IMG/VR virus record: IMGVR_UViG_3300026737_000001
Origin: a virus
Lineage: Duplodnaviria > Heunggongvirae > Uroviricota > Caudoviricetes
Strand: one strand, 5' to 3'
Length of the DNA stretch: 64,000 nt
Within the stretch, counting starts at the first letter, position 1; each line of letters opens with the position of its first letter. Both the position numbers and the translations under genes were made by a program. The notes under the pieces are model-generated. The model had not been told where the DNA came from, made no database searches, and was given only the letters and a program-made list of their open reading frames with translations. Positions 8,676-27,500 of the stretch are shown in pieces.

Positions 8676-11600
8676 ATGGCTGCAAACAGATACATAGAGA
8701 GGTATAAAAAAGGCCTCCAGCAAAGAGAAGAAAAAAGACAGTCTAAAATGGCCTGGTCTAAAACAAATAAATTTCTAACAGGTGCAGCCGCAATTACAGC
8801 AGGTGCATTTGCAGCCCACACACTTCACCCCAAAGGTATAATAGGAGCTTTAGAGAGTGTAGCAAAGCCCACAAATGCTGCCTTTGGAGCCTTCAAAAGC
8901 ACAATGGATAGATATGTGTCAGGTTCCGGGCACGGAGTTTTAAAGGGTGTTGATACAGCTATAAACGCTGTTGATGTATTTAATAATCCAAAGGGTGCAG
9001 TAGACCATTTTAGAAGTACATATAAAAGTATTGCAAAAAGAACAGACGACTTACATATAGATATTTTAAGAAAACAGAAAACAAATGTTATTGACGGAAT
9101 TAAAAAGGCATTAAAAAGAGATGCTATCAGCACTCAGGCAAATAAGAATTTAAATAAATTTATCGAAGATAATGAAGGCGACTTAGCCAAAATAGCCTCT
9201 GATTTTCAGAAAAAAAACCAGTACAGACTTTCAAAGCTAAGTTCTGGCGATAAAAAAGAAGTTAACTATGCACTTGCAAAATTAGACTCATTTAATGAAG
9301 CTAATAAAGAAATTAGAGATAGTGCACAAAAAATGATATTTGACAGTATATCAGGGGCTTCAGAGGCCAGACCAAAGAATGTAGATAATATTCAGGCAGA
9401 TGCCTTAAAGAAAATGATGGATGAGATTGTAGAAAACCAGCAGTCCCAGAGTTCATTTATAAAGAAAAAGTTTAATAATATTTTTGGATACAAAAACGCA
9501 ACGGTGGATGACCTTTTAAATTATGGTGACGACTTTTTAGATGATGAGAGCAGAAAGTTTTTAAACACTTTAAAGATAAACCACGGTGCTGACTTTAAAA
9601 AGTTTGTAGTAGATGACAGCCTATACATGTACAAAGGTAAGGTTGTTGATTCCAGAAACTTCAAAAAGCTTGGCAGAAATATTCGCTCAGGATTTTCTGG
9701 TGGTATTTTAGGTCACTTAACTTACCAGAGAGACTTAATGGCCATGAATGATTTCTCTAAGAGAGCTGGAACACTGATTCGTTCAGGCTACAATGTACCA
9801 ACACTTGATGGATATGGAGTTTTAGGAAAAGACGGGGTTTTAAAAGAATCATTAATTTCTGTTGGAGATAACATCTACAGACTAAATGATATGTCAAAAC
9901 CTCTAGCTGAAGGCTTCCACATAGCTTCAGGAAGGTACGGTTCTACTAAGAGATTAGTATCAAGTATGTCTGGAGTTAACGCTCCTGACTGGAGCAATGA
10001 AAGGGCATACAACTGGCTCTTAGATGTAGGAGGCAAGAGACAGCCGGGGCTTTTAACAAAGTTTAAATCTATTTTTACAAAATCTAAAGACCCACTATAT
10101 TTCAAAAATGAAATGAACAGGCTCTTTACAGTAACAGAAGATATGGCTCAAAAAATACAGTCCGGCACAGCATCATCTGTTCTACCAGAAATAGATTACA
10201 GAATGATGAAAGACCTAGAGCAGTATATGAGGCATCAATCATCAGGCTTTGGCCATGAGATGTTAGATAAGGTTCTTCGTGATTTAGAGGGTACAGAAAT
10301 CAGCTCAAAACTAAAGGGATTAAAATTTAATACAGAAGACGACCTTGTTGAATCATATATTAAAGTTACAAAAGAGCATCTTGGTAAACAAGGCGCTAAG
10401 ATGCCAGATGATACATCTCTTAGGGCAAGGGCTTATAATATTCTTAATACATCAACTCAGAGAAAAAATAAAAGAATATTTGCCGGAAACAAACTGAACG
10501 AAGGTAAAGACAGGCTCTTAAGAGATATCTCAGAGAATGTAACTAATCTAAGGGGTAGTGACAGAACCCTAGAGATTGCAGAATCAATGTATAAAAATAA
10601 GGAGATATCAGGGGCCCAATTTGTTGAAATAAATAAATCAGTTGCAAGCTTTAAAATAAGCGGTTCTATGGACGGCTCATCATTTGATGGAGCTGAAATC
10701 ACTAAGATTCTAGCAGGCAAGAAAGACCCTTATGTAAGGCTTGCTATTGAAGATTCACTAAAAGAAACACACCCTGCTTTTGGCTTCGGAAGGGTTAAGG
10801 AATTCCAAGAAAACTTCCACGGAGATGTACTTCCGGTAAAGAAGTTCAACCCTAAGATTTTAAACGACTGGAAGTCAGTTATAACCGGCGGTCGCAATGA
10901 CATGTCCAAAGTTAATAAGGGAACCCTTTTAACTTACGGTATGATGCACAGACTAAATGATATGGTAAGGCATTTTGATTTTATGCCTCTTGCTATGTCA
11001 GATGACAGTATGGGCTCACCTTTATCAACATTTGGCAACATTATGGCTAAAAGAGTTATGCCGATTTACGCTGGTGTTACAGCCTTAAAATATACAAGCG
11101 ATTACTGGTCTGAAATATCAGGTAGTGGATACACACTAGAACAGCACAAAGAAAGAGCAAAGGCAAATGCAACCTTAAGACTTTCAAAGTTTAAAGATGC
11201 AACAGGCCTTACAAGTGCTTTCAAATTTTTTGATAGGGTAACTCCGGGAAATGAAGGTATAAAGGCAAGTGTTAATAAGCTTCCTTTCATGGGACCTTTA
11301 GCTCCTTTAACAATAGGTATGGAAGCCCTAAATTCTGTCGGAACATTTAGCGGCAGAACTGAAAAAGAATGGGTAGATTACTTCAATACAGGAGAGGACC
11401 CGGTCAGAAAGGGTAGGTACTGGATATTAGGTTCAACCCCCTGGATGGGTGAAAGTATAGACCACTACGAACCAAATAGCTATAGACAGGCTATGAGTCA
11501 GTGGGAATATACAGATACGGTTTACGGCTCAAGAGAAAATTACTGGGCTCACAGCTGGATGCCTACTCCAACAGAACCTCTTGCACCAGTTAAACGCTTC

Positions 11601-14501
11601 GTGACGGACAGGTACTGGTTTGAAAAGATGCACTTAAAAGACAGACCATACCCTCTAACAGGAGAAATGTTTGACCCTAATACACTATGGGGCACACTCT
11701 TAAACCCAACAATAGGCAGGATATTAAAACCACAATTTAAACTGTCTGCAGGCGCAACAGATGAAGACTTAGAAAGAATAGAGAAAAATAATGCTTATGC
11801 CAAAGATGTAATAGCCAGATTCTCAGGTGGAGATTTACAGCTTTCAACCTATATACCTAAATACACAATGTCAACAAATGTTGGCGTTGCCACAGGTGGA
11901 GGAAGAATAGGTTCGGGTAATGTCATGGTAAATGGTGTTGCAGGCAATAAGGCAAATTCAAATGCAGTTGGTGTTCAAGGTGGTGGTCCGGGAGGTTCAG
12001 GAGCTGCTATTAGGCTTACTGAAAACCCTGAAAGCAGTGGTCTTGTAGTAAACGGCCAGAACTACTCACTAAAAGATTTAAAGAATATAAACCAATCAAT
12101 TATAGATAAATCAGGTAAGATAAGCAGGATAAACAAAAAGAGCATTTTAAATACAGGATTTACAATGTCATATTACGAGCCGAGAGAAGAAGGCGAACTT
12201 GCTTTAGATGTGCAAAGCCCAACTGATATCGGCTACAGTATGGAAAGAACATTAGACATCTTCAAGGATATCACAGGTGCAAGAGGATTCTTAGCTTCTA
12301 TGGTAACTGGAGGAGACGATTATGGTGAAGGTCAGGCTGTTTTAGCGACAGCATCTGATGCTTACGCTGCATCATCAAGGTTCTGGGATACAGGGCTTGG
12401 TGGCCGTGGTGGAGAGCTTTCAGAGATTTTCAGAAGATTTATCAACAAAAGACCTGGATTATATAAGGTAATAAACGACATACCAAATACAATGCCCGGC
12501 TGGATGCCTGATAGGTTCCGCACCGGAGACCCCTTCGTTGAGGTAAAACGCGGCGAAATAAGGCTTCCAGGAGAAGCTTACGAGTCAATGAATAAGCTCC
12601 ACCCTGATGAGTACGGAAGGTATGGAGCAGTTGATAGAGCAGCCATCTTAGCTGATATAGCTCCATATTCACAGGAATATAAGCTATGGTCTAAAATAGC
12701 TTCAGAACAGAATCTCTCACAGGAGGCCAAAGAGTTCTTAGCTCAGGCTAAGGAACAAAAAGAAGAGGCAAATAAGAAATATCATATAACACCATATAAG
12801 TTTTTGGGTCAGGATATAGAGAGAGAATCAGCTGTTGTAGAAAAGTTTTTAGATTCCAGCCGCTTTACGGTTAAAGGTTCAGACAGAATATACCGCCTTG
12901 CAGGTGTTAATACCAACTTCAATGCAGAGACCGAAGAGGGCAAAAACACCCTAAACATATTAGAACAGACAATGATGCCTGGAAGCGAAATAACACTTCT
13001 AGCATCAAAAGACAGCAACCCCAACGCCTCAACTCCAGCCGTTGTCTACAGTCAGGACTCAAATGTAAATAGAAGGCTTTTAGACAGCGGAGTTCAGGCC
13101 AAAGAAGAAGATGGGGCTATTGATACTTATGTAAACTTAGGCGTAGGAGGAAGGGCTTTAGGAAGGATATGGGAAGGAGTAGCACACGCCCCAATCCCTA
13201 TAGTCCATAATAAATTCTTCAATGTACGCTCACCTATGGAACACTACAAAGACTATCAAGTTTACGGCAAAGAATGGCAGTCATGGAACGAGCCAGTTGA
13301 CGACCTTTTAGTACCGTCATTCCAGAGTGCCTGGGCCAGAAATCCTTTCTGGGCTACATTATCTGGTGCTACAGCAGGAGCTATAACAGGACTTCTGCTT
13401 GGAGGTCCCGGAGTTAGAAAGGCAATGAGTGGCTTCGGTGCGGTAGCTGCAGGTGTCGGTTCTATTGCTCGCTCACAGTACGAGTTGGAGACGGGTAAGG
13501 CGTGGATACCGGAAAGAAGAGAAGAAGAAAGAAAGATATGGGAATACTACGACCTCTTAAAGTTTGTTAAAAATAAGAGGCTATATAATAAATATGTAGA
13601 CGTAGCTAAAAAAGAAGAAAATGTTGATGTTGAAAAGATAATAAGTGAAATGGAAGAGATTGACGAAAGGCTAAAAAAGAAAGAAGAAATGCTTGAAGGC
13701 TTTTCAAAACACTTACTAAGATACGGCATCAGTAAAGAAGACACTGTCCAAAAACGAATAAACTCAGAGGGTAGGGTCGAATACAATTTAGTCACAGAAA
13801 AAGAGTTTATAGAATCAAAAAGAAAAGAAATACTTCAAGAATTAAGGGATACAAAAGCAGAAGAAGTACTTGTTGGCTTAGGCCCTTATGCAAGAATGGC
13901 GGTTAAATACAGACAGGAATACCGCTCTACACTATTTGGACTTGATGGAAGTTCAACTTTCCAGCAGATGTTTTCTGCTTTTCCAAGTAAGGATAGGGAA
14001 TATTTACAGCATTTCTCTAAGGTTACAGACGAAAAGGAAAGAGAAGAAATACTAAAAATTGTTCCTGACAACCAGAAGAGAGCTTACAAAATTCTATGGG
14101 GTATGGAAACAGAAAAAGAATCTCTAATAGATATGTTCGGAGAGTATGCACTGCCAGATGAAAATTGGTTTGGCTGGAGGGAAGGGGCAGACCTTGAAGA
14201 TTCAATGATAAAACTCATTGAAAATAATGGTTATGACCCTAAAGATTTCGGACTCTGGAAGGATTACACTGTAGAGGAAGAGCTAACACCAGCTCCAGTT
14301 GAGTATGGTAGGCGTTTCGACAGAAAGTCATCCGGATTTATCAGAACAAGATTAGAAGAAGTATTAACAGATTATGATATCAGAGATGTGGATATTAAAA
14401 TAACTCCAAGAGAAGATAACAGTATAAATATAAATTTCGATATGGTACAGGATGTAACAGGAAAAATACAGCTTGAAATACAGAGAGCACTGGGGGGCTA
14501 G
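8676..14501 (+). CDS. tape-measure-like/ejection giant protein with degenerate SNase-like domain
   Basis: Position after chaperones; 1941 aa; Gly/Ala-rich hydrophobic segments at the N-terminus and 13350-13472; SNase-like segment 12831-13095. Confidence 0.6.
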   Translation: MAANRYIERYKKGLQQREEKRQSKMAWSKTNKFLTGAAAITAGAFAAHTLHPKGIIGALESVAKPTNAAFGAFKSTMDRYVSGSGHGVLKGVDTAINAVDVFNNPKGAVDHFRSTYKSIAKRTDDLHIDILRKQKTNVIDGIKKALKRDAISTQANKNLNKFIEDNEGDLAKIASDFQKKNQYRLSKLSSGDKKEVNYALAKLDSFNEANKEIRDSAQKMIFDSISGASEARPKNVDNIQADALKKMMDEIVENQQSQSSFIKKKFNNIFGYKNATVDDLLNYGDDFLDDESRKFLNTLKINHGADFKKFVVDDSLYMYKGKVVDSRNFKKLGRNIRSGFSGGILGHLTYQRDLMAMNDFSKRAGTLIRSGYNVPTLDGYGVLGKDGVLKESLISVGDNIYRLNDMSKPLAEGFHIASGRYGSTKRLVSSMSGVNAPDWSNERAYNWLLDVGGKRQPGLLTKFKSIFTKSKDPLYFKNEMNRLFTVTEDMAQKIQSGTASSVLPEIDYRMMKDLEQYMRHQSSGFGHEMLDKVLRDLEGTEISSKLKGLKFNTEDDLVESYIKVTKEHLGKQGAKMPDDTSLRARAYNILNTSTQRKNKRIFAGNKLNEGKDRLLRDISENVTNLRGSDRTLEIAESMYKNKEISGAQFVEINKSVASFKISGSMDGSSFDGAEITKILAGKKDPYVRLAIEDSLKETHPAFGFGRVKEFQENFHGDVLPVKKFNPKILNDWKSVITGGRNDMSKVNKGTLLTYGMMHRLNDMVRHFDFMPLAMSDDSMGSPLSTFGNIMAKRVMPIYAGVTALKYTSDYWSEISGSGYTLEQHKERAKANATLRLSKFKDATGLTSAFKFFDRVTPGNEGIKASVNKLPFMGPLAPLTIGMEALNSVGTFSGRTEKEWVDYFNTGEDPVRKGRYWILGSTPWMGESIDHYEPNSYRQAMSQWEYTDTVYGSRENYWAHSWMPTPTEPLAPVKRFVTDRYWFEKMHLKDRPYPLTGEMFDPNTLWGTLLNPTIGRILKPQFKLSAGATDEDLERIEKNNAYAKDVIARFSGGDLQLSTYIPKYTMSTNVGVATGGGRIGSGNVMVNGVAGNKANSNAVGVQGGGPGGSGAAIRLTENPESSGLVVNGQNYSLKDLKNINQSIIDKSGKISRINKKSILNTGFTMSYYEPREEGELALDVQSPTDIGYSMERTLDIFKDITGARGFLASMVTGGDDYGEGQAVLATASDAYAASSRFWDTGLGGRGGELSEIFRRFINKRPGLYKVINDIPNTMPGWMPDRFRTGDPFVEVKRGEIRLPGEAYESMNKLHPDEYGRYGAVDRAAILADIAPYSQEYKLWSKIASEQNLSQEAKEFLAQAKEQKEEANKKYHITPYKFLGQDIERESAVVEKFLDSSRFTVKGSDRIYRLAGVNTNFNAETEEGKNTLNILEQTMMPGSEITLLASKDSNPNASTPAVVYSQDSNVNRRLLDSGVQAKEEDGAIDTYVNLGVGGRALGRIWEGVAHAPIPIVHNKFFNVRSPMEHYKDYQVYGKEWQSWNEPVDDLLVPSFQSAWARNPFWATLSGATAGAITGLLLGGPGVRKAMSGFGAVAAGVGSIARSQYELETGKAWIPERREEERKIWEYYDLLKFVKNKRLYNKYVDVAKKEENVDVEKIISEMEEIDERLKKKEEMLEGFSKHLLRYGISKEDTVQKRINSEGRVEYNLVTEKEFIESKRKEILQELRDTKAEEVLVGLGPYARMAVKYRQEYRSTLFGLDGSSTFQQMFSAFPSKDREYLQHFSKVTDEKEREEILKIVPDNQKRAYKILWGMETEKESLIDMFGEYALPDENWFGWREGADLEDSMIKLIENNGYDPKDFGLWKDYTVEEELTPAPVEYGRRFDRKSSGFIRTRLEEVLTDYDIRDVDIKITPREDNSININFDMVQDVTGKIQLEIQRALGG

Positions 14502-14504
14502 TAA

Positions 14505-17500
14505 ATGTACGATTTTGATAACATGCCGGCAGTCTCGTCGGATTACAAAGAAGAAATGTATAATAAATACGGTTTAAAGGTTACAAATAGGGTCTCTGAC
14601 CCTCAGCCTTCCTTTCTCTTTCAAGTAAGCAGTCAAAGAAAGGCTAAGGCAAAGCTTGATAAAGCTGCCAATAAAGCCGTTCAGTATTCGCACAACTTTG
14701 AAGAGATAAATGCAATATATAATGACCTTGGTAAAATAAAAAATGCAATGACAGAAAATGGTGTTAAAAGAGGAACCCTTGATATTTTCAAGGATGTAAA
14801 TGCAGTAACTTACGGCAGGAATCCACATAAAGCTATTAGAAACTGGCAGAAGGCCATCAACACAAATTCAAAAATAATTGGTTTCGATATAGAGAGTTTA
14901 GGAGATATGAATGAAGGTAATATTTTTACACCGACAGAAATCTCCTTCTACTCTGCCACAATGAACGGTGATGAGCTTTCTAAAAGAGCCTTAGAGCGTT
15001 CATTTATTGTAGCACCAAATAGAGCTTCTGTTGATAATATCAACGAGCTATTTGATAAAGTACAGGCTTTTTACGAAAACGGCAGAACTCCAATGCTCAG
15101 CGACTCCGAAAGAAGGACTCTCGGAGATTTAATCAAATACTCAAACGGTGCAGAGTTTGTACAGAAAAATTCTATGACAGAACTAGGAAAAGCTTCTAAT
15201 ATGTACAAACAGTTTGTTACTGATGGAGGTCAGCTTAAAAGATTAAGCTCTGCAAGTTCAGGTAAAAAGATGCTGGCCCTAGCAAGAGAGGGTTTGGGCA
15301 ACTTACAAAAATATGGTAAAGATGCAAGTAGTGTAGCTCAAAACTTAAGCTACTATCTTGCCGAACAGAATGCAAATTCAAATGCCTTCTTTATGGGTCA
15401 CAATATAGAAAATTTTGATAATATAGGCCTGACAAAATTCATGCAGGCTAACGGCTTTGATAACGGATTTAAACCAAAACAGTATATAGATACACTGGAT
15501 TTAGCAAACGCCTTTTATTCCACACCGCTTGACCTGCAGAAATTAAGCAGTGTAGATACAGGGCAGTTAACAAGACTTAACTCAGGTCATTTAAAAATGG
15601 AGAACCTGACCAAAGTTATGGGTTTTGGAAACTATACTCACTCAGCAGCTGATGATACAAGAAAAGCTTTTAACGTAGTCTCAAACTTATTTTTCAGCCA
15701 AGAGGGCCTCGACCACATAAATAAAAACATCTTATCTAGTGGTGGAGATTTTTCAAAGAACTTTAATATAAGCTCCCTAAAACCCGGAGACGAGCTGTTT
15801 TCTACAGCAGGGGCAATGGATACAGGTAAAGGTCCATTGAGTTTTGTTACGGCATTCAATGACGGCAAAGAAGTAGTAGATGGAAGCAAATTTTACATAA
15901 GTTCACACACAAAATACAGATTTGTAGGAAGTTTTAGGAATAAAGACTCGGTCGGAGTTAAGCTGCAGAATGCTATGACAGGGGAAAATGTCTATGTCAA
16001 TAAGTCAAACGAGAAGGAATTAAGACAGTTTATCTATTCCAAATTTGACAATGCTGCAAAGTATTCAAATACCGATATGCAGAGAATGTATATGAATACC
16101 AGAAACGATATCGCTCGTTCTAAGTTCAGACAGATGACAAACAATATCAGCTTTAAAAACTACAAAAACTTACAGGCAACATTAAAGGCCTATAACTTAG
16201 AAAAAGCACAGGGAAGAAGTCTTTTAAATAACGAACTTGATGAAATATTCTCATATACAGATAAAAGCGGCTCTAAAATTATAAGGGGCAACTGGAAAGA
16301 AAACTACAGAAGAATGAGGGGCAGACTTACAAGTGATGCTCCTATACTAGACAAGCTTGTTAAGGAAGTAGAAGCACTGCATGGTGGAGATAAAGAAAAC
16401 CCAAACTACTGGCCGGTGCAAAAAAGACACGCAGCAGTTGTAAATGCCTATCAGGAAATGCAAAAAGATTTTGGAAAAAATAAAGATATTATAAACCTTA
16501 AAAGCAACAAGGCTTACGGAATAGACCTTCTGGGGCCAGATGGTAGAAACACAAGAATCTCACTTGCGAGAAAATCAAATGCAAGACGTGACTTAAGAAG
16601 ACTATTCAACTATACAGAGTCAACAGCAGGAAGAAACTTCAAAACAGCTGACGGATTTTTTATTGAAGTTTTAGACAGCGTAAAAGACCATGCAAGTCAG
16701 TACCAGAAGAATATGGCCAACAAAGATTATGAGGGCTTTATGTACAGGCTTGACGAAATTATAAGACCTATGGCTAAAAGTCAGGACAATGCCTTCACCC
16801 AGATAAATGCACTTTCAGACCTACTGGTTGATTATAGAGATAAAATACCGGGACTTAAAAAAAGCGTGATGGAAGTTGAGGGACTTGGAGCAAGAAATGC
16901 TTTCACAACCCAAAAGATGATGGATAATGTGGATACATATTTAAGAAAAGGTTTAGACTATGCTAGTGGAATAACCATCAATCACGGCTTTGCTAAGGGT
17001 CTTTCAGGTGGAGCTAACAACAGTGTTTTAACTACTGTAAGGGCTTTAGATGAAGCTTTGCAGAAAAACTATATGGCACTGGGAGTTAAAAAAGAATTCG
17101 TTTCAAATATACCTACAATGGAAAGCTCGCTAAATAGCACCATACGCAAATTTGGGACAGCGTTCTCAAGCAAAGGAGATATCGACTTAGGCTTTGAGCT
17201 CTTCAACACAGGTACGGTAGAAAAGCCGCAGGTATCAATGGCTATTTTCAAGCAGGGCTCAGATGATGTGCTAACACTTGATGCATTAAAAGCAAATAAA
17301 AATGCTGCTATAATAGATATACCTCTGGTTAATGCAGACCAGTATATTCATTACGGAAACCAGAAAAAAATATCACCACTTGCACTCCTTTATAGGGATA
17401 AATTCAGTGCAGGAGCCGATATAAAAACAGGAACCTCTTTCAGCTACATGATGCATGAGCTTAACGGAGAGGCCAACAATATGATTAAGGCAGCTCAGGA

Positions 17501-20500
17501 AGGCGACTTTAGAAGAATAGAAATGATAGCAAACGGTAAGATACAAAAATCTTTAGGCTATCTCTCGGGCTCAAACAAGCATGTAAGAGACGCAGAGAAG
17601 ATGTATTCTTCAACAGCAGAAGCCGACTTTCTTAAAAAAGGATATGTACTATTTAGAGGTGTCTTTGAAAATCAAGGCGAACAGGTAGGGCTTGATGGTG
17701 AAACATTGTACCCATCTAAAAAGTTTAACATGTTTGCTGATGGCTCAGTTCAAAAAATGATTAAAAATAAATTAGGAATTGATGCATCCTTAGAATCGAC
17801 AAGAGGTGCACACGCAGTAAATCAGTTCTTTTTAAGCTCAATCGAAAACAGAAATTTTGTTAACTTCGGGATGTACAACTCTCCCGGTCGTGACAACATG
17901 ATACAGATGAGAAATAAAAGAACACTTTCTAAAAAGGCTATAGAGTCAATACAGGACAATATAAATAAAGCTAAGGGTTATTCAGGACTCTCTATTGACC
18001 CCTTACTTATCACACAGTCCGAACAGTTTTTAAGAGATACTGATAATGCTTTTGCTAAATATCCAGGCGTTAATGTCAGCATAGCAAATGTTGATGAGCT
18101 TGAGGGAATAGAGAAGCTAAAAAATGCCTTTGATAAAAGCGACAAATACACTATGGAAGGTGTTTTTGGTAAATCTCCAGCTAACTTCCCTTCTTTCTGG
18201 GAAAACCAGGCTATTGTATCTCAAAGTTTTGCAGACTCGCTACATTCAGTAAACTCATATACAAAAGACTACAAGCTGTCTGATTTAGATGAAGGCTTTA
18301 TTAATAAAGTTAAACGTTCACTTAAAGATGGCGGCTCAGGTTACAGAATGGGTTACATGGAGCAGATGGGTCCTGACGAGATATTTAAAAGGGTATCCAG
18401 AAAAGATGGGGTTGAACACTTCATTACAGGATTCAACATCAATGACGGCAAGATAAGCTTCAAGTTCGAAGAGAACTTCAGCACAAGGGCTGGGGTAACC
18501 AAACTATTTTTGGCTTCAGAGAAGGTTACTGTCAGAAATATTGTGCCTGATGAAATTATGAAGGCAGCATTCGGCGAAGGCGTTCATGTTGCAGGTAATA
18601 TAAACCACGCAGGACATCAGGGTTATGGAGAAGTAGCAGAGGGCTTAATCAAAGAGTCGATAAATAAAATAAACCATTCAAATATAGATAGACAAATCAA
18701 ACAGGAAGCTATACAGGAAGTTCAGGATATTGTAGATAGAACCTTTGGTCTGGCAACAACAATCAAAGAAGAGGGCAAAACAGGTAGCGGTAAGTTTAGA
18801 CTTGTAATCAACAACAACAAAGCCGGATTCAAGCACCTGATGGTAGCCGAAGGAGGAATAGACCAGGCAAATCTAGGTCTTAAAAATATTGACCCAAGAG
18901 TTGCCAACGTAGTTAGAAACAAAGGTGCCTTAAGTATCAAAGATTTAAGAACTAACTTAAACAACATAAAATCCTTCAACCTAGGATTAAAAGATAATAT
19001 CTTAAACCTAGAGGCAGTCTTAGCTCAAAACAGTGAAGACATAAACTTCATGTCAGTCGGAGGCTACGGCAAAAAAGGCGTAAAAGTAGGTCCAAGACAT
19101 ATCGGAGTCATGATGGACAAGGGTTACACAGAATACGCCAGATGGCTAAAAGACTCAGTTTTAGAAGAAGCAAAACAGGCAAACAGGATTTCATCACTAC
19201 CTGGAACAAGAGGCTTAAATGGAGCACTTGAAGGCCAATCAAGAGCTATGGAACTGCTTGCAAGAGCAGCTCGAGGTGAAGGTGCAGTACCAGATGGTTC
19301 CAGAATAAATGAATACACAGAAGTTCTAGAAGAGTTAAGCGAGTTAAGAGAAGGTGGAACTCAGGGGCAGGAAAAAGGCCTTTTCTCTAAATCGGATTTA
19401 ACAAAGACAGTTTTTGACCCCGAATACAGAAGAAGAGGGAAAAACGGCCTTTATATTTCACTGCCAGAAGAACTTGAGATAGAGTTTGGAAACGAAAAAA
19501 CAGGAAGAACAAGGGTTAAATTAAACGAAATATTCCTTTCAGATACGGCAATTGAGATGTCCAAGAAAAAAAATGGAGAAGCCCTTTACTCTTTAGGAGA
19601 AATAGGTAGGGAAGAATCAGACATCTTTAATGCGATGAGGGAATATAATACAGCAGTCCAAAACTCCTCGCAACTTGCTGGAGACCTTTCAGCAAGGGAG
19701 GCTAAAGAAAAAGCTTTAAGAAGTATGAAAACAGGTATCAAAAATTACTATAACGCAATCTTCCATCAGTCTACAAGCTCTCACGGGCAAAAATATAACA
19801 GGGCATTATCGGCAAGGTTTAAAGGCTCGGGAAGGCTTAAACTGCAGATTATGTCTCCAGCTCTAGAAATTGCAGATGAGGTTAATAGAGCAAGCGGCAC
19901 TACAGAAGAGAAAATATCAAAGGTAGCAAGAAAATTTGATATAGATGAAAAAGTAATAAAAAAAGCATATGCAGTGGTAAAGGGTGCTGGCTACAAAGGC
20001 CTTGACAAATCTAATGCTATTTATATCAGTCGAGATAGAGCAAAAGACATGCTTAAAGGTTTGGAAAAAACAGACAAAAAACAGTTTGACAATATAATGT
20101 CAGGACTTGAAGAAGGTAAAGGAATGCCTGGAATGATGTTCCGCTCACCTGTAATCCATACAGAGTCAGCAATGCCTGTTGAATACAGAATAGATGATGA
20201 GCTTGATTATGATACTGTTAGAATATCATCAACAATGGCAGCTGCTCAATTTGGTGATTCTGATGGTGACGAGGTATCTTTTGTAATGGCCTATAATAAA
20301 CAAGGCGTCAGAACAAATGCCAAAAAAATGGAAGAAGAAGTAGCCAGAGTTGCTGATGAAATGAGAAACACTTCATACAACTCAAAAGGGCCATGGGTTA
20401 AAAGGAATATGGTAGCCCTAGAAAATGTAACTTTAGGTAAGAAGAATTATGTAGATTCAGTATTTGAAACAATAGAATCAAATTCAGACTTTAAGGGCAA

Positions 20501-21566
20501 ACTTGATGTCTGGGATACAAGGCAAATGACAAAATCAGAGCTTGAAAATTATGCAACAAGGCTTTCTAAAGCTAAACTTACAAATGCAACTTATACAGGT
20601 ATGATTAATAACCTGACAGATGAAATCAAAAGACTTGGTAAGGGTTATGCAACATCCGACAAAGAGCTTGTTAATTTTGCTTCTGGGCTTGGATTAATCA
20701 CTCAGGAAGCTGTATCGGGTAAACACTCAATGACTAAAAAGTCCGGCTCATCAGTATCAACAGACCAGATTATAAAATGGGTTAGAGAAGGTAAGTTCAG
20801 CAACTTTGAAGGCATGATGGACCTATCACCAGAAGAGATACAGGCGATGAACGATGTCCACTTTAGAATGAGAAAAGATGCAAATAATCCGCTTGAAAAT
20901 GTGGCAAACAAGATATTTTTAAGTGAGAAAGTTGCAAGAGAAATTAACGTTGCAGATTATTCCATGATAAAAGATACAATGGTAGATAGTTTAGAAAAAG
21001 AAATGGCAAGTGTTTATACAACTGGCCCGGGCAGAAATATCTACAAGGGCAATCAAAACTTATCAAAAAATGCTGGTCATATAGCTGAAAACGGAATCAA
21101 CTATACAGGCAATGCAGCTTCGGAATTTTTAAAGGTAGCAAATACCAAAACTGCAGCAATTATGTCATCAGAAGTAGCACAGCATAAGGCTTTCGGTCCT
21201 ATGGCGGCCGCAGGATTAGCTATAGGTGGAGCTATAATGGGTGCTGGAGCTGCAATGAGCACACAGCCTCTACCTATGGACTACATGAATAATCCGGCAA
21301 TGAATGCCGTTTCTGGTGCAGGCTCAAGACAGCCCATGATGGATATGAACAGCATCCAGAATATAGTAAATAATCAGGGTATGGATATCATAATTAATGG
21401 AAACACAACAATAGATAAAGATGTAAACGAATTGGCAGGAGTTGTATCACAAAGCGTAGGTTCTGCAATGAATATACCGGTTAACATAAATGTCAACGCC
21501 AGTGATAATCGAGGTTCAATAAACCAAAGCTGGATAGAAGATAGAATTCTTGCTGCACTTGAATAG
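14505..21566 (+). CDS. giant DEDDh exonuclease / single-chain two-barrel RNA polymerase fusion (putative virion RNAP)
   Basis: Exo motifs FDIE (D128/E130), GHNIENFD (D305), HSAADD (H379/D384). RNAP motifs WENQAIVS (E1233), TK-LFLASE-KVTVRNIVPDEIM (K1333/K1340), RFKGSGR (1771-1777), RSPVIH (1880-1885), FGDSDGD (D1918/D1920/D1922), TQEAVSGKH (Q2067/H2074). Confidence 0.8.
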   Translation: MYDFDNMPAVSSDYKEEMYNKYGLKVTNRVSDPQPSFLFQVSSQRKAKAKLDKAANKAVQYSHNFEEINAIYNDLGKIKNAMTENGVKRGTLDIFKDVNAVTYGRNPHKAIRNWQKAINTNSKIIGFDIESLGDMNEGNIFTPTEISFYSATMNGDELSKRALERSFIVAPNRASVDNINELFDKVQAFYENGRTPMLSDSERRTLGDLIKYSNGAEFVQKNSMTELGKASNMYKQFVTDGGQLKRLSSASSGKKMLALAREGLGNLQKYGKDASSVAQNLSYYLAEQNANSNAFFMGHNIENFDNIGLTKFMQANGFDNGFKPKQYIDTLDLANAFYSTPLDLQKLSSVDTGQLTRLNSGHLKMENLTKVMGFGNYTHSAADDTRKAFNVVSNLFFSQEGLDHINKNILSSGGDFSKNFNISSLKPGDELFSTAGAMDTGKGPLSFVTAFNDGKEVVDGSKFYISSHTKYRFVGSFRNKDSVGVKLQNAMTGENVYVNKSNEKELRQFIYSKFDNAAKYSNTDMQRMYMNTRNDIARSKFRQMTNNISFKNYKNLQATLKAYNLEKAQGRSLLNNELDEIFSYTDKSGSKIIRGNWKENYRRMRGRLTSDAPILDKLVKEVEALHGGDKENPNYWPVQKRHAAVVNAYQEMQKDFGKNKDIINLKSNKAYGIDLLGPDGRNTRISLARKSNARRDLRRLFNYTESTAGRNFKTADGFFIEVLDSVKDHASQYQKNMANKDYEGFMYRLDEIIRPMAKSQDNAFTQINALSDLLVDYRDKIPGLKKSVMEVEGLGARNAFTTQKMMDNVDTYLRKGLDYASGITINHGFAKGLSGGANNSVLTTVRALDEALQKNYMALGVKKEFVSNIPTMESSLNSTIRKFGTAFSSKGDIDLGFELFNTGTVEKPQVSMAIFKQGSDDVLTLDALKANKNAAIIDIPLVNADQYIHYGNQKKISPLALLYRDKFSAGADIKTGTSFSYMMHELNGEANNMIKAAQEGDFRRIEMIANGKIQKSLGYLSGSNKHVRDAEKMYSSTAEADFLKKGYVLFRGVFENQGEQVGLDGETLYPSKKFNMFADGSVQKMIKNKLGIDASLESTRGAHAVNQFFLSSIENRNFVNFGMYNSPGRDNMIQMRNKRTLSKKAIESIQDNINKAKGYSGLSIDPLLITQSEQFLRDTDNAFAKYPGVNVSIANVDELEGIEKLKNAFDKSDKYTMEGVFGKSPANFPSFWENQAIVSQSFADSLHSVNSYTKDYKLSDLDEGFINKVKRSLKDGGSGYRMGYMEQMGPDEIFKRVSRKDGVEHFITGFNINDGKISFKFEENFSTRAGVTKLFLASEKVTVRNIVPDEIMKAAFGEGVHVAGNINHAGHQGYGEVAEGLIKESINKINHSNIDRQIKQEAIQEVQDIVDRTFGLATTIKEEGKTGSGKFRLVINNNKAGFKHLMVAEGGIDQANLGLKNIDPRVANVVRNKGALSIKDLRTNLNNIKSFNLGLKDNILNLEAVLAQNSEDINFMSVGGYGKKGVKVGPRHIGVMMDKGYTEYARWLKDSVLEEAKQANRISSLPGTRGLNGALEGQSRAMELLARAARGEGAVPDGSRINEYTEVLEELSELREGGTQGQEKGLFSKSDLTKTVFDPEYRRRGKNGLYISLPEELEIEFGNEKTGRTRVKLNEIFLSDTAIEMSKKKNGEALYSLGEIGREESDIFNAMREYNTAVQNSSQLAGDLSAREAKEKALRSMKTGIKNYYNAIFHQSTSSHGQKYNRALSARFKGSGRLKLQIMSPALEIADEVNRASGTTEEKISKVARKFDIDEKVIKKAYAVVKGAGYKGLDKSNAIYISRDRAKDMLKGLEKTDKKQFDNIMSGLEEGKGMPGMMFRSPVIHTESAMPVEYRIDDELDYDTVRISSTMAAAQFGDSDGDEVSFVMAYNKQGVRTNAKKMEEEVARVADEMRNTSYNSKGPWVKRNMVALENVTLGKKNYVDSVFETIESNSDFKGKLDVWDTRQMTKSELENYATRLSKAKLTNATYTGMINNLTDEIKRLGKGYATSDKELVNFASGLGLITQEAVSGKHSMTKKSGSSVSTDQIIKWVREGKFSNFEGMMDLSPEEIQAMNDVHFRMRKDANNPLENVANKIFLSEKVAREINVADYSMIKDTMVDSLEKEMASVYTTGPGRNIYKGNQNLSKNAGHIAENGINYTGNAASEFLKVANTKTAAIMSSEVAQHKAFGPMAAAGLAIGGAIMGAGAAMSTQPLPMDYMNNPAMNAVSGAGSRQPMMDMNSIQNIVNNQGMDIIINGNTTIDKDVNELAGVVSQSVGSAMNIPVNINVNASDNRGSINQSWIEDRILAALE

Positions 21567-21577
21567 GGGTGTTTTTT

Positions 21578-24500
21578 ATGGCAAAGTACAATTACGCAAC
21601 AACTAAAAATATAATAATGAAAGAAAATCTTCAGTCAAAGCCTGTTAAAGCAAAAGTCGTAAGAGTTCAGGATGGTGACACTATATATGTTACCAGTTCA
21701 GACCCTATATTTAAGGGTACTGAAAAAGAATTTGACGGCACTTATTCAATAAGACTCTCGGGTGTTCAGGCTCCCGAGGGCACATCTTTCTGGGATATGG
21801 AAGATGATAAGTCTGGCTTAAGAGATTATGATGATTATAGGTACACAGGTTATGAAGAAAAAGATGAGTTTTCTGAAGAGTCCTTTCTTTTTATGAAAGA
21901 CCTACTTTTGGGTAAGGAAGTAATACTTGATTTAAGGACTAAAGAAAACGGGAGCTTGATAACAGGAAGGTTTTCACGGCCGATAGCAATTATCTTTGCT
22001 AAAATGGGAGAAGAATATGTAAATGCCAACGTTTCTCTTTTAACAAACTCTCTCGGGACACCTTATTATGTTGAAGCTATGAACTTAAGTGACAGCGAGA
22101 AAAAAGAGTGGTCTAACCTATCTATTATAGCAGATATGCTGAAGATGGAAGAAGAAACAGAAAAGATTGAAGAGGACTTAGATGAGTTTGTAGGTTCTTT
22201 TGACCCTGAAACAAACATCAAAATAGGTGACAGCATTCTTCCGATACCTCCTGAAGCTATTGTGGTAAACGACATAAATGAAGTCAATCCAACATCAGTC
22301 ATTCGTGGTGGAAGCACTTTAATGTCCTCAACAGGCCACAGGCAAAAACAGGTACAGATGGAGTTTTATTTCGACAGCAACAAAAGAACAAAAGAACTTA
22401 TAAAGGGAAGAACCTATGAAGGTGACCAGATTAACGGCTTTCCTAAATTAGCTGCCGGTAAAAGCGCAGTTATCATGCAGGATGGAGAGGAATTTAGACC
22501 AGTATATTACATAAACGGATTGAGGCCTTTAATGGCCCAATTTAAATTGACACCTTTTTTACCTATAGAAAATGAATACCTAAACAAAACTCATGATATC
22601 TCAGCTTTAACACTTCAAAACCTATCAATCAGTAATGTTGAGGGATTTCCGGGACTTGTTAAGGCTACATTAATAGCACTGGAGTTTAATCATGAAGCTT
22701 ACATAAATATGGTTGGACCTTTTAAAGATGTCTTCGACTGGGGTTTATTTAGATTTTACTACCAGAGACTTATAGATGGTACCGGAATAAAGCATAGGGG
22801 TACAAAACTACCCTTTTACCAGAGAGACGGAGAGGATTTTTCCTTCTTTACAGTAGATAGCTGGTCCTTACAGAAAAGAGAAAACCTTGAAGCTTCACTG
22901 GAAGATGTCTTAAGAGAATACCAGATAGACCTTGAAGAAGGCAGTACAGAATACGAAAAGCTAGTCTTTGAATATGAGGTGTTTACAGAAGCTCTGGAAC
23001 AGTATGAACTTTTTAATGAGCTAAAGGGAAGTTATAACCTTAATAATGAGGATTCAAAAAAAGAGCTTTACCTAGAATACATAAGAAAAATTGCTGACAA
23101 ACAGGAAAGAAGAAATGACAGCTTCAACGATGGGCTCTATTATGAGCCTAATATCCACAACGAGCTTGATTTCTTGGAAAATGGAAGACTTAGCCGCTAC
23201 GATAATCTAATTGAAGACCTTGTTAAAATTGAAGGCTATGATGGTGACTATTTCGATATAGCTTTAAGAAGCGAGAAAAATAAAGAATTTTTAATCAACT
23301 ACTTAAAGCAAAAAGAAGAAGATAATTTAATACCAACAGAACTCGATTTAGTTAAGTCAACTGAAAAAGAAATCGAGAGGATAAAAGAGGCTAATTCTTT
23401 TAATATTAAAATCTCAAGAGACAGCTTTTTATATATCAAAGACAGAGTAATAGCCGGTGGTAAAGACCTCTTAAAAGAAAGAGAAGAAGCTGTATCTATG
23501 ACCGACAATCAGATGGATGATTACGAGTGGAACAAACATTATTACAGCGACCTTCATTTAAACCAAATAAATGTATCGATGTCAAACGGCGTAAATACCG
23601 TAAAGTTAAATATGCACACAAAACCAACTCATCAGTATTTAGGCTCAAAAGATATAGTTATTTCAACTAGCTTTGTCACAGATAACGAACATACATTAGA
23701 GAGCATTAACTTTCTTGCATCTCATACTAGTGCTATGGAGCTTAGATACAAAAAAGTTTTAGATAATCCGGTAATGAAAGTCCAAAACAATATAGTTGAT
23801 ATGTTTGGATTAGATGGTGCTTATATTAAAAATATAGAGACAAATACTGTACCTTCTATGCCGGGATTATTCCAAATTGAGATTTCATTTTTCGGCTATA
23901 TTGGTGCGCCAGGAGACAAAGACTCTCTATCACTTCAGTACCGTTCGGAGCTTGGTGTCGACGGAAAAATGGGTCACGATAATTTAACAGACTATTTCAA
24001 TATGAAAGAGAGACTTAAATACATCAACCTTTATCCGGACCTTGAGCTTCCTAGATATTCAGAGCTTCCATTAAGGCACGAACTATTTGATGCTAATGAT
24101 GACAGCTTTGTAGACCCTGATTTTTATGCTCTTGATGTGCCAAAAGTATTTTCAGAAGATGTAATCAGGGCTTTATATGATGAAGATGATGCAGTAATTA
24201 TCGGTAGAGACACAGAGGGTAATGCTGTTAGAGCTTTAGTTGATGATAAAGGTAATATAAATTTAATTGACTCTAATATTCAAAGCGAATACAAAAGAGA
24301 TTCCAAGCCAACACTTGCAGATATAGCATACGAAAAAGGAGATGTAGGCTACAATGAGTTAAGCGAGTTTATGGATAATAGAAGTTTGGATAGAAGCAAC
24401 ATGTCTTTTGTATCAGACAAAGAGCTTAAAAGCTATCTCTCCTCTGAAGATAAAATGGTAAGCAATGTTAAGCATAGAAAAATAAAGATTAGTGATTTTT

Positions 24501-27500
24501 GGGAGTCATATGTTATTAAATGGCTTGATAGCACTGTTCAGAAAGATATTAGCGAAATCGAAAGAATAATTGCAGCAGGTTTTATTGTAGGAAACTGGGA
24601 TAAGGACTACATAGATGAGGACTACCTGGAGTTTCCAAAGAAAAGCCTTTACAGAAACAGAAGTGGAGAATTGGTAGATGAACTCTCTGAAGCTAGCTAT
24701 TATGGTGTTTTAAATTTAAATGGAGATAATTTAAACCAAGATGTTAAGAAAAAAATAGCTTCTAATTACAGGGCCAGCATACTAAAGTATGAGCTTGAAT
24801 CTGGGAAAATATATGACATATTAAAAGAAAAATCTCCACAAATAAACTTTGACAGAATCGAAGGCACAGGTGTAAGCAATCTTTATGAGAACTATTCTAA
24901 AAGAGAAAGTGTTGACTATATGTTCAAGATGCTTTCATACTTTTTAGTTAAAGGCATCTCACTAAATGATATATCTAATTACGAAGGAGGTTATCCTGAG
25001 TCTGCAAATAATGTCAAGGAAGCATATTTAGAGTTTGAAAAATCAGCTAAAAATATTATAGGTTCTAAGGGTATTTATATAAATCCCACAGAAATGATTG
25101 ATATGCTTCCTAATTTTGCGATGTTAATTAAAAAATCTCTAGAATCTATTAACGGAGATAATTTTGTTTTAACATCTGAAGGAACATACATGCAGTCAAG
25201 AAGAGAAGATGTTAGGTTTGCAAGTTCGTTCAACGACATGCTTGAGTATGACAGAAAAGGAAGGTTAATCAGAGCTTTTCCATCCTATTACATGCTCCTG
25301 ATTGATGAGGGTAGAGAGTTTATGTTCTGGAAAATGCAGGATTTATTCTACCACTACAATGGTGTACAGAGTATAGATGTTGTCAGAGATAAGAAGAACA
25401 TATCAGATACATGTATGATTACAATGTCAAACTCAAAGGGCAGATTATCAGATGCTTCTGGTGGTTACAGAAATAAATACTATCAGGAAAAAGGAGTAAT
25501 GGAGACTTTATGGTCTTTAACACCTTTTGCTGAATTTGAGTGGGAAAAAGCTAAGAGAAACTCAGAGTTTGAAAGCGTACAGCTTGCAACAGGTGCCAGG
25601 CTTCATTTAAGAATGGGCTATGGTTCAACACCAGATAAGCTTCCAACTGTATTCAACGGAACTATAACAGAGCTTCAGCTTGGTGATACTATAACCTTTG
25701 TAGCTCAAAATGACGGCATAGAGTTAAACAAACCAATACCAGCATCTCCAAACGAAAAGACTGATTTTGACATACTTGGACAGCTAGATGAACCAAGAAC
25801 TATAATCAGCAAGATAGTAGGAGATAGAGGCAACTTATGGTCTAGGTTTATGAATAACATTTCAGGTAACTTACTCTATAATGAGAGTGCTTACGGAATA
25901 CAGCATTTTGGAGAGCCCAAAAGGCCTGAGTGGTGGGATGAGAGTCAGTATTTAACAAAAAGACATCCAATAACTGATATATATATAAATCAAAACTCAA
26001 GGTCTAGCGACAAGATGGAAAGAGCAGTCAGGGATGAAGAAAGAACTTATGAGGTTACACAGAACATAAACTCATCTCTTTATGAAAACAAAGACTTCTC
26101 TATGTATCTCTATGGTAAGACAGTATGGGATGTTTTGGAAACATGTGCTCTTGTAGCACCTAACTATATAGCAGCAGTCCACCCATTTGCTTTTAGAAAT
26201 ACAATCTTTTTTGGCCACCCAAACTTTGATTTGGCTTATGACTATGAAGCTGAAATGGATGAAAAGGGCAACTATATCAGGGAAGAATCTAAAGAGGAAG
26301 AAGTTGAGCTTTCGTTTACAGGTAACGGAACTAGAAAAACCTTTGAACTAAGAATGAATATAATTGAAGGAAGTCTTGAAGTTAGGGATGGAGACAAAAA
26401 AATAACAGATAATATCGACAAGATTGACCATAGATTAGGTCGTGTTATTTTCAGTACCCCTCCAAAAGACGATGTAAAAAATGTAATTTTTACCTTCAAA
26501 ACCTTGGTTCGAGGAAAGATAGAGCCGTTAAATGTTAGAGAAAAGTTAAAATCTTACAGGCAGAACCATTTCTATTCAAGCTATTATGACATAATAGCAA
26601 ATAATATTAGAGCTACAGAAAAGAATATGTACACAGCAGTTAAGCCTGTCCTTTCAAAAGACGGAATCTATAAAGAGCTTGATGAGATGTTTGTAGACAC
26701 AGATATTTTTCCTGATAGACAGAGGTTAAAAAAGATAGATACTTCAATACCAACCCCTGATTTTGTCAAGAAATTTACAAACACCTTTCAGGTTACACCA
26801 GAAAACGCTGAGATAAATGCAAGAAGGTATGGGGCTGGAGCCTTAAAACAGGCAGTAGAGAATATGTACGACGGAGAGATAGTAGTTACAGGAGACCCTT
26901 CTGTTAAACCATATGATTATGGATACCTAGCAGATGTAAGAGATAGAATTTCAGGAACCTTTGAGGTTTCATCAGTTGTCCACAGCTTAAATGATACAAC
27001 TGGTTTTGTAACATCAATCAATCCATCACCGGTAGTTTCTGTAAATGAGGGCCTTCAATACGACAAGGATTTTTGGAAGTGGACAAACTCCAAGTTCTCA
27101 AGTCTTTATGCTAACAGTGTTGTAGCAAGGCTTTCGACATACACAGCTTTAGCAAGCCTGAAAAGCGTTCCTAAATACCTTGACGTAACAACAGACGCTT
27201 TAAAGCATTCAAATCTTGGTTACCTTCCATTTCTTTTAGGAAAAAATGTTTTAGAAAGAATAAAGGACCTCGGAACAAAAACAGATAAGTTTGTTATTTG
27301 GGTTTCAAGATTTTTAGATAATGCAAATAAAATGAGCGACATATCCAAGCTTGGTGGAAAAGGGCTTAAGAACGTAGACTCTTTGAGGAAGATGATGATT
27401 TCAGGTAAGTTTTCCAGCAGGGCACAAAAGATAAGTGACGGATTAAATGATTTCAGAAACGGTTATGTAAGAATGGGAGAATACCTAAAAACTGCATCTA

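Follow-up and report, generated by a model that had tools for sequence, protein, structure and literature searches.

Genomic Setting and Domain Organization

We analyzed a 64,000-nucleotide (nt) stretch of DNA, referred to below as the window, from an uncultured Bacillus-type jumbo phage (Caudoviricetes; IMG/VR record IMGVR_UViG_3300026737_000001). The window covers a virion module with a contractile tail, in which sheath genes are followed by two small open reading frames (ORFs) at the position of tail chaperones and by three giant genes, the second of which is the gene studied here. It is a 7062-nt ORF (14505-21566) that begins 3 nt after the stop of the preceding 1941-amino acid (aa) giant ORF, with a GGGGGG ribosome-binding site 6 nt upstream. 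A reading made from the sequence alone had drawn attention to positions 14862-15680 (plus strand) inside this ORF, proposing that they encode a complete DEDDh 3'-5' exonuclease fused to the N-terminal side of a putative RNA polymerase (RNAP). Our analyses make it very probable that the 2353-aa product, hereafter the window protein, is indeed a DEDDh exonuclease fused to an RNAP (Table 1).

The N-Terminal Domain Is Predicted to Be a Complete DnaQ-Type Exonuclease

The ExoI, ExoII, YIDTLDLA, and ExoIII motifs all lie at the residues originally named, including D128, E130, D305, H379, and D384. When aligned to the exonuclease of PolC (2p1j), the DxE strand of Exo I (FDIES) pairs with LDFETTG, the Exo II motif of the form N-x3-[FY]-D (HNIENFD) with HN-ANFD, and Exo III (HSAADD) with HRALDD, the last being the H-x4-D form of the h subgroup and not Y-x3-D.

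An exhaustive phmmer search with aa 95-420 as the query against 1.84 billion cluster representatives matched 22 proteins. Most of them (18) are 2100-2600 aa long and carry the matching stretch at aa ~60-430; three are short, extend beyond the domain, and look like contig-end fragments, and one (P0017), a repeat protein, was set aside as spurious. The resulting domain alignment (22 domains, 326 columns, 21-76% identity to the query, mean column identity 26%) contains ten invariant columns, namely D128, E130, E145, P171, L209, N300, D305, D329, H379, and D384. The catalytic residues, whose conservation in homologs had been named as a check, are therefore invariant in 22 of 22 domains; of the others, E145 sits on the 'TEI' strand and D329 in the 'IDT' motif. 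In a full-length alignment of 19 proteins, ten of the 24 invariant columns fall within the exonuclease, conservation over 100-aa stretches of the family alignment peaks at aa 126-225, and a full-length tblastn search against 50,697 phage records gave matches confined to aa 89-529, the exonuclease region. The exonuclease is the best-conserved part of this family of giant proteins.

Searched against all PDB sequences, the family profile matched DEDD exonucleases only. The top match was the PolC exonuclease (2p1j_A, E 1.4e-6), to which Exo I, Exo II, the I-D-T-L motif, and Exo III align motif for motif; it was followed by DEDDh enzymes named exonuclease III, Cap18, ExoI, RNase T, DnaQ, TREX1/2, Cas2-DEDDh, and MrfB, with the exonuclease domains of family A and B polymerases ranking lower. 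Individual relatives matched the NCBIfam models of Pol III epsilon, DnaQ/DinG, and 'DEDD exonuclease domain', and the N-terminus matched two PHROGs families of 'DNA polymerase exonuclease subunit' (E ~1e-3). The whole 2353-aa protein gave no match in PHROGs and none by phmmer against PDB sequences. As a single sequence, the domain scores below the threshold of Pfam PF00929 (RNase_T; 13.7 bits versus a cut-off of 24, E 0.096), and only three of the 22 relatives reach E <= 0.01 with this family. Given the E-value of the family profile, this sub-threshold score reflects how insensitive a test with a single sequence is.

An AlphaFold2 (AF2) model of the domain was obtained with a predicted local distance difference test (pLDDT) of 88.4 and a predicted template modeling score (pTM) of 0.87, such that a DEDD fold, the absence of which would have spoken against the assignment, is predicted with confidence. 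Foldseek placed this model with ExoI, TREX1/2, and RNase T in the PDB at a probability of 1.0, and the Swiss-Prot and viral model libraries agree with a DEDDh exonuclease fold. VIA-align gave Z 14.2-14.9 for a DNA polymerase exonuclease domain, ExoI, Pol III epsilon, the Streptococcus thermophilus 8H18 DnaQ domain, and Staphylococcus aureus DinG, with Pol III epsilon superposing over 164-166 of ~175 residues at a root-mean-square deviation of 2.3-2.4 Å (1j53: 164/174, 2.3 Å), and Z ~13 for the RNA-acting DEDDh folds of RNase T, 3'hExo, and oligoribonuclease. The invariant catalytic residues, the profile match to 2p1j, and the confident fold all bear out the earlier assignment: as judged from sequence and model, the domain is a complete DnaQ-type DEDDh exonuclease with an intact catalytic set, for which metal-dependent 3'-5' exonuclease activity is predicted.

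The size of the insert between Exo I and Exo II had to be corrected, as the ~150 aa first proposed come down to ~85-90 aa of extra material: D128 and D305 lie 177 residues apart versus 91 for D12 and D103 of Escherichia coli epsilon, and profile positions ~102-188 are skipped in the alignment to 2p1j. The insert folds as helix/beta-hairpin/helix in the AF2 model and is itself conserved, with the motifs E-x-R-T-L-x-D-L-x-K-Y-S and G-L-x-N-L, an invariant L209, and nearly invariant Y212, G263, and L267. In the viral library (BFVD), the exonuclease model is matched second-best by A0A385E474, a free-standing viral protein of 303 aa (E 5.4e-9, 16% identity), which ranks ahead of the usual phage DnaQ proteins; it might be a relative that exists on its own and shares the insert.

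This domain has the same D, E, D, H, D motifs as the solved DnaQ-type DEDDh enzymes (epsilon 1J53/2GUI, PolC 2P1J, DinG 8ZEF, ExoI 1FXX/4HCC), the I-D-T-L motif in common with epsilon and PolC, and the same RNase H-like fold (Z 14.2-14.8, near-whole epsilon superposed). It differs from them in the additional conserved insert, in its identity of 15-17% to any solved member, and in being encoded within a virion-module protein, whereas these relatives are replisome or repair enzymes.

A Putative Two-Barrel RNA Polymerase Core Follows in the Same Polypeptide

The region aa 1100-2080 was modeled by AF2 with a pLDDT of 84 and a pTM of 0.81, and the model was compared exhaustively with 48,161 PDB representatives (VIA). 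Its first half (model residues 12-460) matched beta-type subunits, among them those of the non-virion RNAPs (nvRNAPs) of the phages phiKZ (7ogp_C, Z 16.0) and AR9 (7s00_C, Z 15.2), the plastid beta subunit (8qma_A, Z 15.2), the beta subunit of Xanthomonas (6j9e_C, Z 14.0), and eukaryotic and viral second-largest subunits (Z 12-14). The second half (model residues 487-980) matched beta'/A-type subunits, including A190 of Pol I (7aoc_A, Z 10.6), 2pmz_A (10.3), 6edt_D (9.7), and further ones at Z 10.4 and 10.2. With Foldseek, the best match of the core was a beta' piece of the AR9 nvRNAP (7s00_d, E 3.8e-7), and at least 388 matches were found at E <= 0.001, the best 50 of which are all RNAP large-subunit chains or phage homologs. 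PolD is absent among the 50 best structural matches of the core, and QDE-1, P74 gp62, and P23-45 gp96 matched it at Z 7-8.7 only.

Five of the 24 invariant full-length columns (R1880, P1882, D1918, D1920, and D1922) belong to an R-x-P-x-x-H...D-x-D-G-D element that resembles the one of the beta' subunit. Of the residues considered for the two basic positions that a beta-type barrel supplies, the candidate K1333 varies among the 19 proteins; K1340 is K or R in 19/19, and T1342 is invariant. The position equivalent to beta' N458, a residue that reads the ribose in cellular RNAPs, is not conserved before DxDGD in the family. The 2353-aa protein contains no cysteine, and the zinc-binding elements of cellular beta' subunits are therefore absent. 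The lack of cysteine would also suit unfolded passage through a narrow channel and subsequent refolding.

Sequence and model together indicate that in aa 1100-2080 beta and beta' are fused into a two-barrel RNAP core of the type found in cells and jumbo phages, predicted to perform DNA-templated RNA synthesis. That the exonuclease precedes an RNAP in one polypeptide, as had been proposed, is upheld by the folding and matching of both a beta-like and a beta'-like half and by the invariant DxDGD. Because gp96 of P23-45 matches this core at Z 6.9-7.1 only, versus Z 10-16 for beta/beta' subunits of the cellular type and of jumbo phages, the polymerase of the window protein seems to belong to the other major clade. 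The spacer that separates the exonuclease from the core (aa 421-1100) fits no Pfam or PHROG family and gave no usable match in an Atlas feature search; it might contain N-terminal lobes of the beta-like half.

Table 1. Features of the giant gene and of the two giants that flank it (window positions).
Feature	Position	Strand	Basis
Upstream giant, 1941 aa, homolog of 0305phi8-36 gp145 and WH1 gp096	8676..14501	+	Homology, synteny
Giant ORF: predicted exonuclease, spacer, RNAP core, hydrophobic segment, tape-measure-like tail	14505..21566	+	ORF P0001, 2353 aa
Predicted DEDDh (DnaQ-like) 3'-5' exonuclease domain, aa ~115-400	14847..15704	+	AF2 model, Foldseek, VIA-align, profile against PDB
Exo I motif IIGFDIES, aa 124-131 (D128, E130)	14874..14897	+	Invariant in 22/22
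Insert between the Exo I and Exo II halves, aa ~195-280	15087..15344	+	Secondary structure of the model, gap versus 2p1j, conservation
Exo II motif FMGHNIENFD, aa 296-305 (N300, D305)	15390..15419	+	ORF translation, family alignment
YIDTLDLA, aa 327-334 (D329 invariant), typical of epsilon/PolC	15483..15506	+	Aligned to YIDTLAL of 2p1j
Exo III motif HSAADD, aa 379-384 (H379-x4-D384), defining the DEDDh subgroup	15639..15656	+	Family alignment, 2p1j
Spacer, aa 421-1100	15765..17804	+	Without Pfam or PHROG match
Beta-like half of the putative RNAP core, aa ~1111-1560	17835..19184	+	VIA structural comparison
Beta'-like half of the putative RNAP core, aa ~1586-2080	19260..20744	+	VIA structural comparison, Foldseek
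Putative metal-binding GDSDGDE (D1918, D1920, D1922), preceded by RSPVIH (R1880, P1882)	20253..20273	+	Invariant in family alignment
Sole strongly hydrophobic, Gly/Ala-rich segment, aa ~2229-2252	21189..21260	+	Conserved in family consensus
C-terminal tail, aa 2292-2345	21378..21539	+	blastp against 0305phi8-36 gp146
Downstream giant, 2368 aa, baseplate-hub/cell-wall hydrolase, homolog of 0305phi8-36 gp147	21569..28675	+	phrog_20474 (hub/endolysin), E 3.5e-176

Retention of the Fusion and an Apparent Exchange of RNA Polymerase Types

The exonuclease-RNAP fusion is also found in the cultured Bacillus phages WH1, Edson, and KLEB27-3. In WH1 and KLEB27-3 the exonuclease (E 4e-49 and E 2.6e-58, respectively) lies in one ORF with the RNAP core (E 3.9e-86 and E 1.5e-126), and neither genome has a match to PF05183. 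The phage 0305phi8-36, in turn, has a YonO-like RNAP of the PF05183 family (E 1.1e-20), and when the exonuclease, the RNAP core, and DxDGD were all looked for in its gp146, none was found. Only the last ~50 residues of gp146 are common to the window protein (blastp 33% over 54 aa, E 7e-4), whereas the giants that flank the window protein are clearly homologous to those of 0305phi8-36. In three complete genomes, exonuclease and RNAP core are therefore present or absent together, in alternation with the YonO-like RNAP, which fits a transcription role of the giant and a functional link between its two enzymes. When the gene of gp146 (L008:7624-15237) is set against positions 21378-21539 of the window, it looks as if the body of the slot protein had been exchanged together with the type of RNAP.

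Retention of the fusion in homologs, proposed earlier as a check, was also viewed from the polymerase side. This RNAP-first view covers P0025 (reached via the core), WH1, and KLEB27-3, all of which (3/3) have an intact exonuclease. A word-indexed search for stand-alone relatives of the core (465-1792 aa) returned none, a negative that is weak owing to the prefilter, and a search for related loci with the beta' barrel alignment found only a near-identical IMG/VR contig.

The Tape-Measure Slot

The gene order around the fusion is recurrent and reads sheath, tube, two chaperones, first giant, exonuclease-RNAP slot protein, hub giant, sheath-initiator, and baseplate J. The slot order is kept in WH1, KLEB27-3, and 0305phi8-36, as well as in two metagenomic contigs whose slot proteins are relatives with 40% and 18% identity. 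Lying between the tail chaperones and the hub, the slot matches the position of a tape-measure gene. The mostly extended helix of the tape-measure type was not found in the window protein, in which globular enzyme domains make up at least 1300 of the 2353 residues. The protein occupies the tape-measure slot and shares its tail, but we would not class it among the classical tape measures. Concerning its relatives, WH1 gp095 is annotated as a virion structural protein, and 0305phi8-36 gp146 was detected in virions by mass spectrometry.

Comparison With Known Systems

From RNAPs that phages deliver, one can learn how viral gene expression is started without the enzyme of the host. To our knowledge, three architectures of such delivered RNAPs have been described, those of N4, of crAss-like gp66, and of P23-45 gp96, none of them with a nuclease. 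The last of these, from a Thermus phage (PDB 8H2M, 8H2N), is a virion RNAP fused to a tail tape measure protein that transcribes pre-early genes (PMC10770324; Chaban et al., 2024) and was proposed by its authors to act at the pore during DNA entry (PMC10770324). Both gp96 and the window protein have a two-barrel single-chain RNAP in a giant tape-slot protein with a hydrophobic segment downstream; yet gp96, a siphovirus protein of 5002 aa, carries its RNAP at the extreme N-terminus, while the myovirus-type window protein of 2353 aa has the exonuclease on the N-terminal side of its RNAP, and the two cores show only the low structural similarity given above. The word exonuclease is absent from the gp96 paper (PMC10770324), and its supplements do not list WH1, KLEB27-3, or 0305phi8-36.

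The nvRNAPs of phiKZ and AR9 (7OGP, 8QUE, 7S00) are the best structural matches of both core halves, but each of them is divided over four or five polypeptides, does not belong to the tail, and comes without an exonuclease, whereas the core of the window protein is a single chain. In AR9-like Bacillus phages, the C-terminal piece of beta is fused to an HD phosphohydrolase (PMC7824862). The counterpart in the same slot of 0305phi8-36, gp146, is a 'hypothetical tape measure protein' (EF583821; Hardies et al., 2007, PMC2147016), which lies between a gp145-like and a hub giant, is of similar length (2537 aa), and has the C-terminal tail in common with the window protein, but is without exonuclease or RNAP core, the phage having the separate YonO-like RNAP instead. 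This YonO-like enzyme is the only one given for 0305phi8-36 in a survey of jumbo phages (PMC7824862). The virion 'RNAP beta subunit' of the Bacillus phage BpSp (PMC4870245), a 58.7-kDa protein with that annotation, was considered as a counterpart and excluded.

The sequence-only reading, which was unaware of gp96 as a published tape-fused precedent, knew of no exonuclease-RNAP fusion among described two-barrel RNAPs, and our literature searches likewise found no published report of one. The DEDDh fold and the tape-fused virion RNAP are each known; it is their pairing for which no published report was found. Polymerases paired with a dedicated 3'-5' exonuclease are otherwise familiar. Coronavirus nsp14 ExoN is a DEDDh enzyme, a separate protein that serves the palm-type RNA-dependent polymerase nsp12, and archaeal PolD combines a two-barrel catalytic core that makes DNA (DP2) with DP1, a calcineurin-like phosphoesterase and not a DEDD enzyme.

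A conserved and, by prediction, apparently active DnaQ-type exonuclease on a delivered RNAP would imply an unrecognized step at DNA entry, one that might prepare the template, edit transcripts, or attack host nucleic acid. The resemblance of the core to beta/beta' of the cellular and jumbo-phage type, and not to the YonO/gp96 type, is of interest for the question of how multisubunit RNAPs may become fused and minimized. With the fusion occurring in the cultured phages WH1, Edson, and KLEB27-3, the question is directly testable, and the annotation of the 'tape measure' slot in 0305phi8-36-like jumbo phages changes.

Possible Roles of the Exonuclease

We propose that the window protein would be the myovirus counterpart of P23-45 gp96, assembled in or at the tail via its tape-measure-like tail. 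It would be ejected ahead of or together with the genome, place its hydrophobic segment at the membrane, and carry out the first transcription. Tape measure proteins are anchored by their C-terminal tail at the tail tip; were the same true here, the exonuclease would adjoin the leading DNA end. There, a two-metal-ion exonuclease could remove nucleotides from DNA 3' ends, either at the entering terminus or at nicks, and so expose single-stranded template or clear 3' ends for a sigma-less polymerase. A DNA-directed role in the service of the polymerase is, in our tentative view, the most likely job of the exonuclease, and it is supported by the sequence matches of the domain, which are led by DNA-acting enzymes (the PolC exonuclease and ExoI) and whose closest members are exonucleases of DNA replication. 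For the complete statement, an exonuclease-RNAP slot protein that is delivered by the tail and acts on DNA 3' ends, we consider the case evenly poised.

Several points weigh against this proposal. RNase T, oligoribonuclease, and 3'hExo match the domain almost equally well, and sequence and fold do not separate a DNA from an RNA substrate. Approximately 700 residues without an assigned fold lie between exonuclease and polymerase, so that a physical coupling of the two would be hypothetical. The exonuclease and RNAP domains, when folded, are too large for the lumen of the tail tube, so that the location of the protein and the order of ejection are assumptions; its presence in the virion is itself suggested by analogy to the relatives. 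The co-occurrence of the two enzymes rests on three complete genomes, and the conservation figures are biased, the relatives having mostly been collected with the exonuclease as query. Finally, gp96 works without an exonuclease and recognizes promoter motifs (PMC10770324).

An RNA-directed partnership, in which the exonuclease would trim transcript 3' ends and so rescue backtracked complexes or remove misincorporated nucleotides, appears unlikely to us, if the best of the alternatives. The domain would then be a fused analog of nsp14 ExoN, replacing the Gre/TFIIS-type factors that a minimal RNAP may be unable to recruit. The joint presence or absence of exonuclease and core, a conservation strong enough to suggest a core function of the enzyme, and the fold matches to RNA-acting DEDDh enzymes are all consistent with such a role. 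However, two-barrel RNAPs have an active site that itself cleaves backtracked RNA, we know of no two-barrel RNAP that uses a DEDD domain, and the best sequence matches are exonucleases of DNA replication. The long spacer between the domains also argues against it, as does the pre-early transcription of few genes, for which there is little obvious need for proofreading. The wider idea that exonuclease and two-barrel core form one proofreading polymerase machine strikes us as similarly doubtful, even when its two variants are taken jointly: the first DNA-dependent two-barrel RNAP with a nuclease for proofreading or backtrack rescue, or a PolD-like enzyme for DNA synthesis or repair on the incoming genome.

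Alternatively, the exonuclease could be an injected weapon that rides on the ejected giant and breaks down DNA or RNA of the host, or nucleic-acid intermediates that defense systems produce, without any link to transcription, which we regard as rather improbable. From its slot in the tail module, the protein probably enters the cell just as infection begins, enzymatic cargo is common on phage proteins that are ejected (the hub giant has wall hydrolases, PF01832), and enzymes with TREX-like folds break down DNA in the cytosol. Without free ends, though, a 3'-5' exonuclease has nothing to act on, and few copies would enter per virion. No endonuclease partner was confirmed, with Pfam giving no match at E <= 0.01 in the two flanking giants and the chaperones, and this reading would not explain why exonuclease and RNAP core are strictly paired in the genomes examined.

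Less probable still is a role in processing the genome ends, in which 3'-5' resection of terminally redundant ends would let the 5' strands anneal for circularization or recombination. In classical experiments with exonuclease III, complementary 5' single strands reportedly annealed after such resection, and the N-terminal position may put the domain beside the leading DNA end. Terminal repeats are present in 0305phi8-36, for which a figure legend mentions a terminal repeat (PMC2147016), but this phage is itself without the domain; moreover, only the end that enters first would be near the protein, and the link to the RNAP would be unexplained.

A two-barrel polymerase that synthesizes DNA, with the exonuclease as its proofreading module and the giant copying or repairing DNA by the logic of PolD, we deem highly improbable. 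The standard proofreading partner of DNA polymerases in families A, B, and C is a DEDD exonuclease, PolC and epsilon give the best sequence matches, and the residue equivalent to beta' N458 is not conserved. Against this stand the structural neighbors of the core, which are RNAP beta/beta' subunits, especially those of jumbo phages, and do not include PolD among the 50 best, as well as the lack of the other phage RNAP type in phages with the giant protein, which fits a role in transcription. That the domain is an inactive relic or a chance motif match, a structural domain without catalysis, as the Pfam score below the gathering threshold of the single sequence might suggest, is scarcely credible in view of five catalytic and three further family-typical residues (N300, D329, E145) invariant down to 21% identity, a confident model, and a strong fold match.

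Neighboring Genes

The upstream giant of 1941 aa directly follows the ORFs at the chaperone position and is conserved in all relatives, including 0305phi8-36, in which it corresponds to gp145, a virion protein by mass spectrometry. Since the second giant consists largely of globular enzyme domains, this first giant (8676-14501) may be the true length-determining tape measure. It is a single gene in WH1, 0305phi8-36, and the window, but is split in two in KLEB27-3 (L002:4656-11809; gp031, gp032, gp033), where pieces of 1340 and 677 aa match residues 12-1329 and 1352-2025 of WH1 gp096 and a 636-nt gene lies in between, possibly inserted as a mobile element.

Between the sheath and chaperone genes, an ORF of 369 aa (5758-6867) matches phrog_9206, 'major head protein', over its first 150 residues (E 4.9e-32). 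This label is odd at the tube position, and either the PHROG annotation may be wrong or an N-terminal domain may be shared. Two ORFs match tail-sheath PHROGs, one at 163-1677 (504 aa, phrog_279, E 1.7e-11) and one at 2289-4937 (882 aa, phrog_16991, E 7e-114), and paralogous sheath-like proteins fit the paralog families described for 0305phi8-36.

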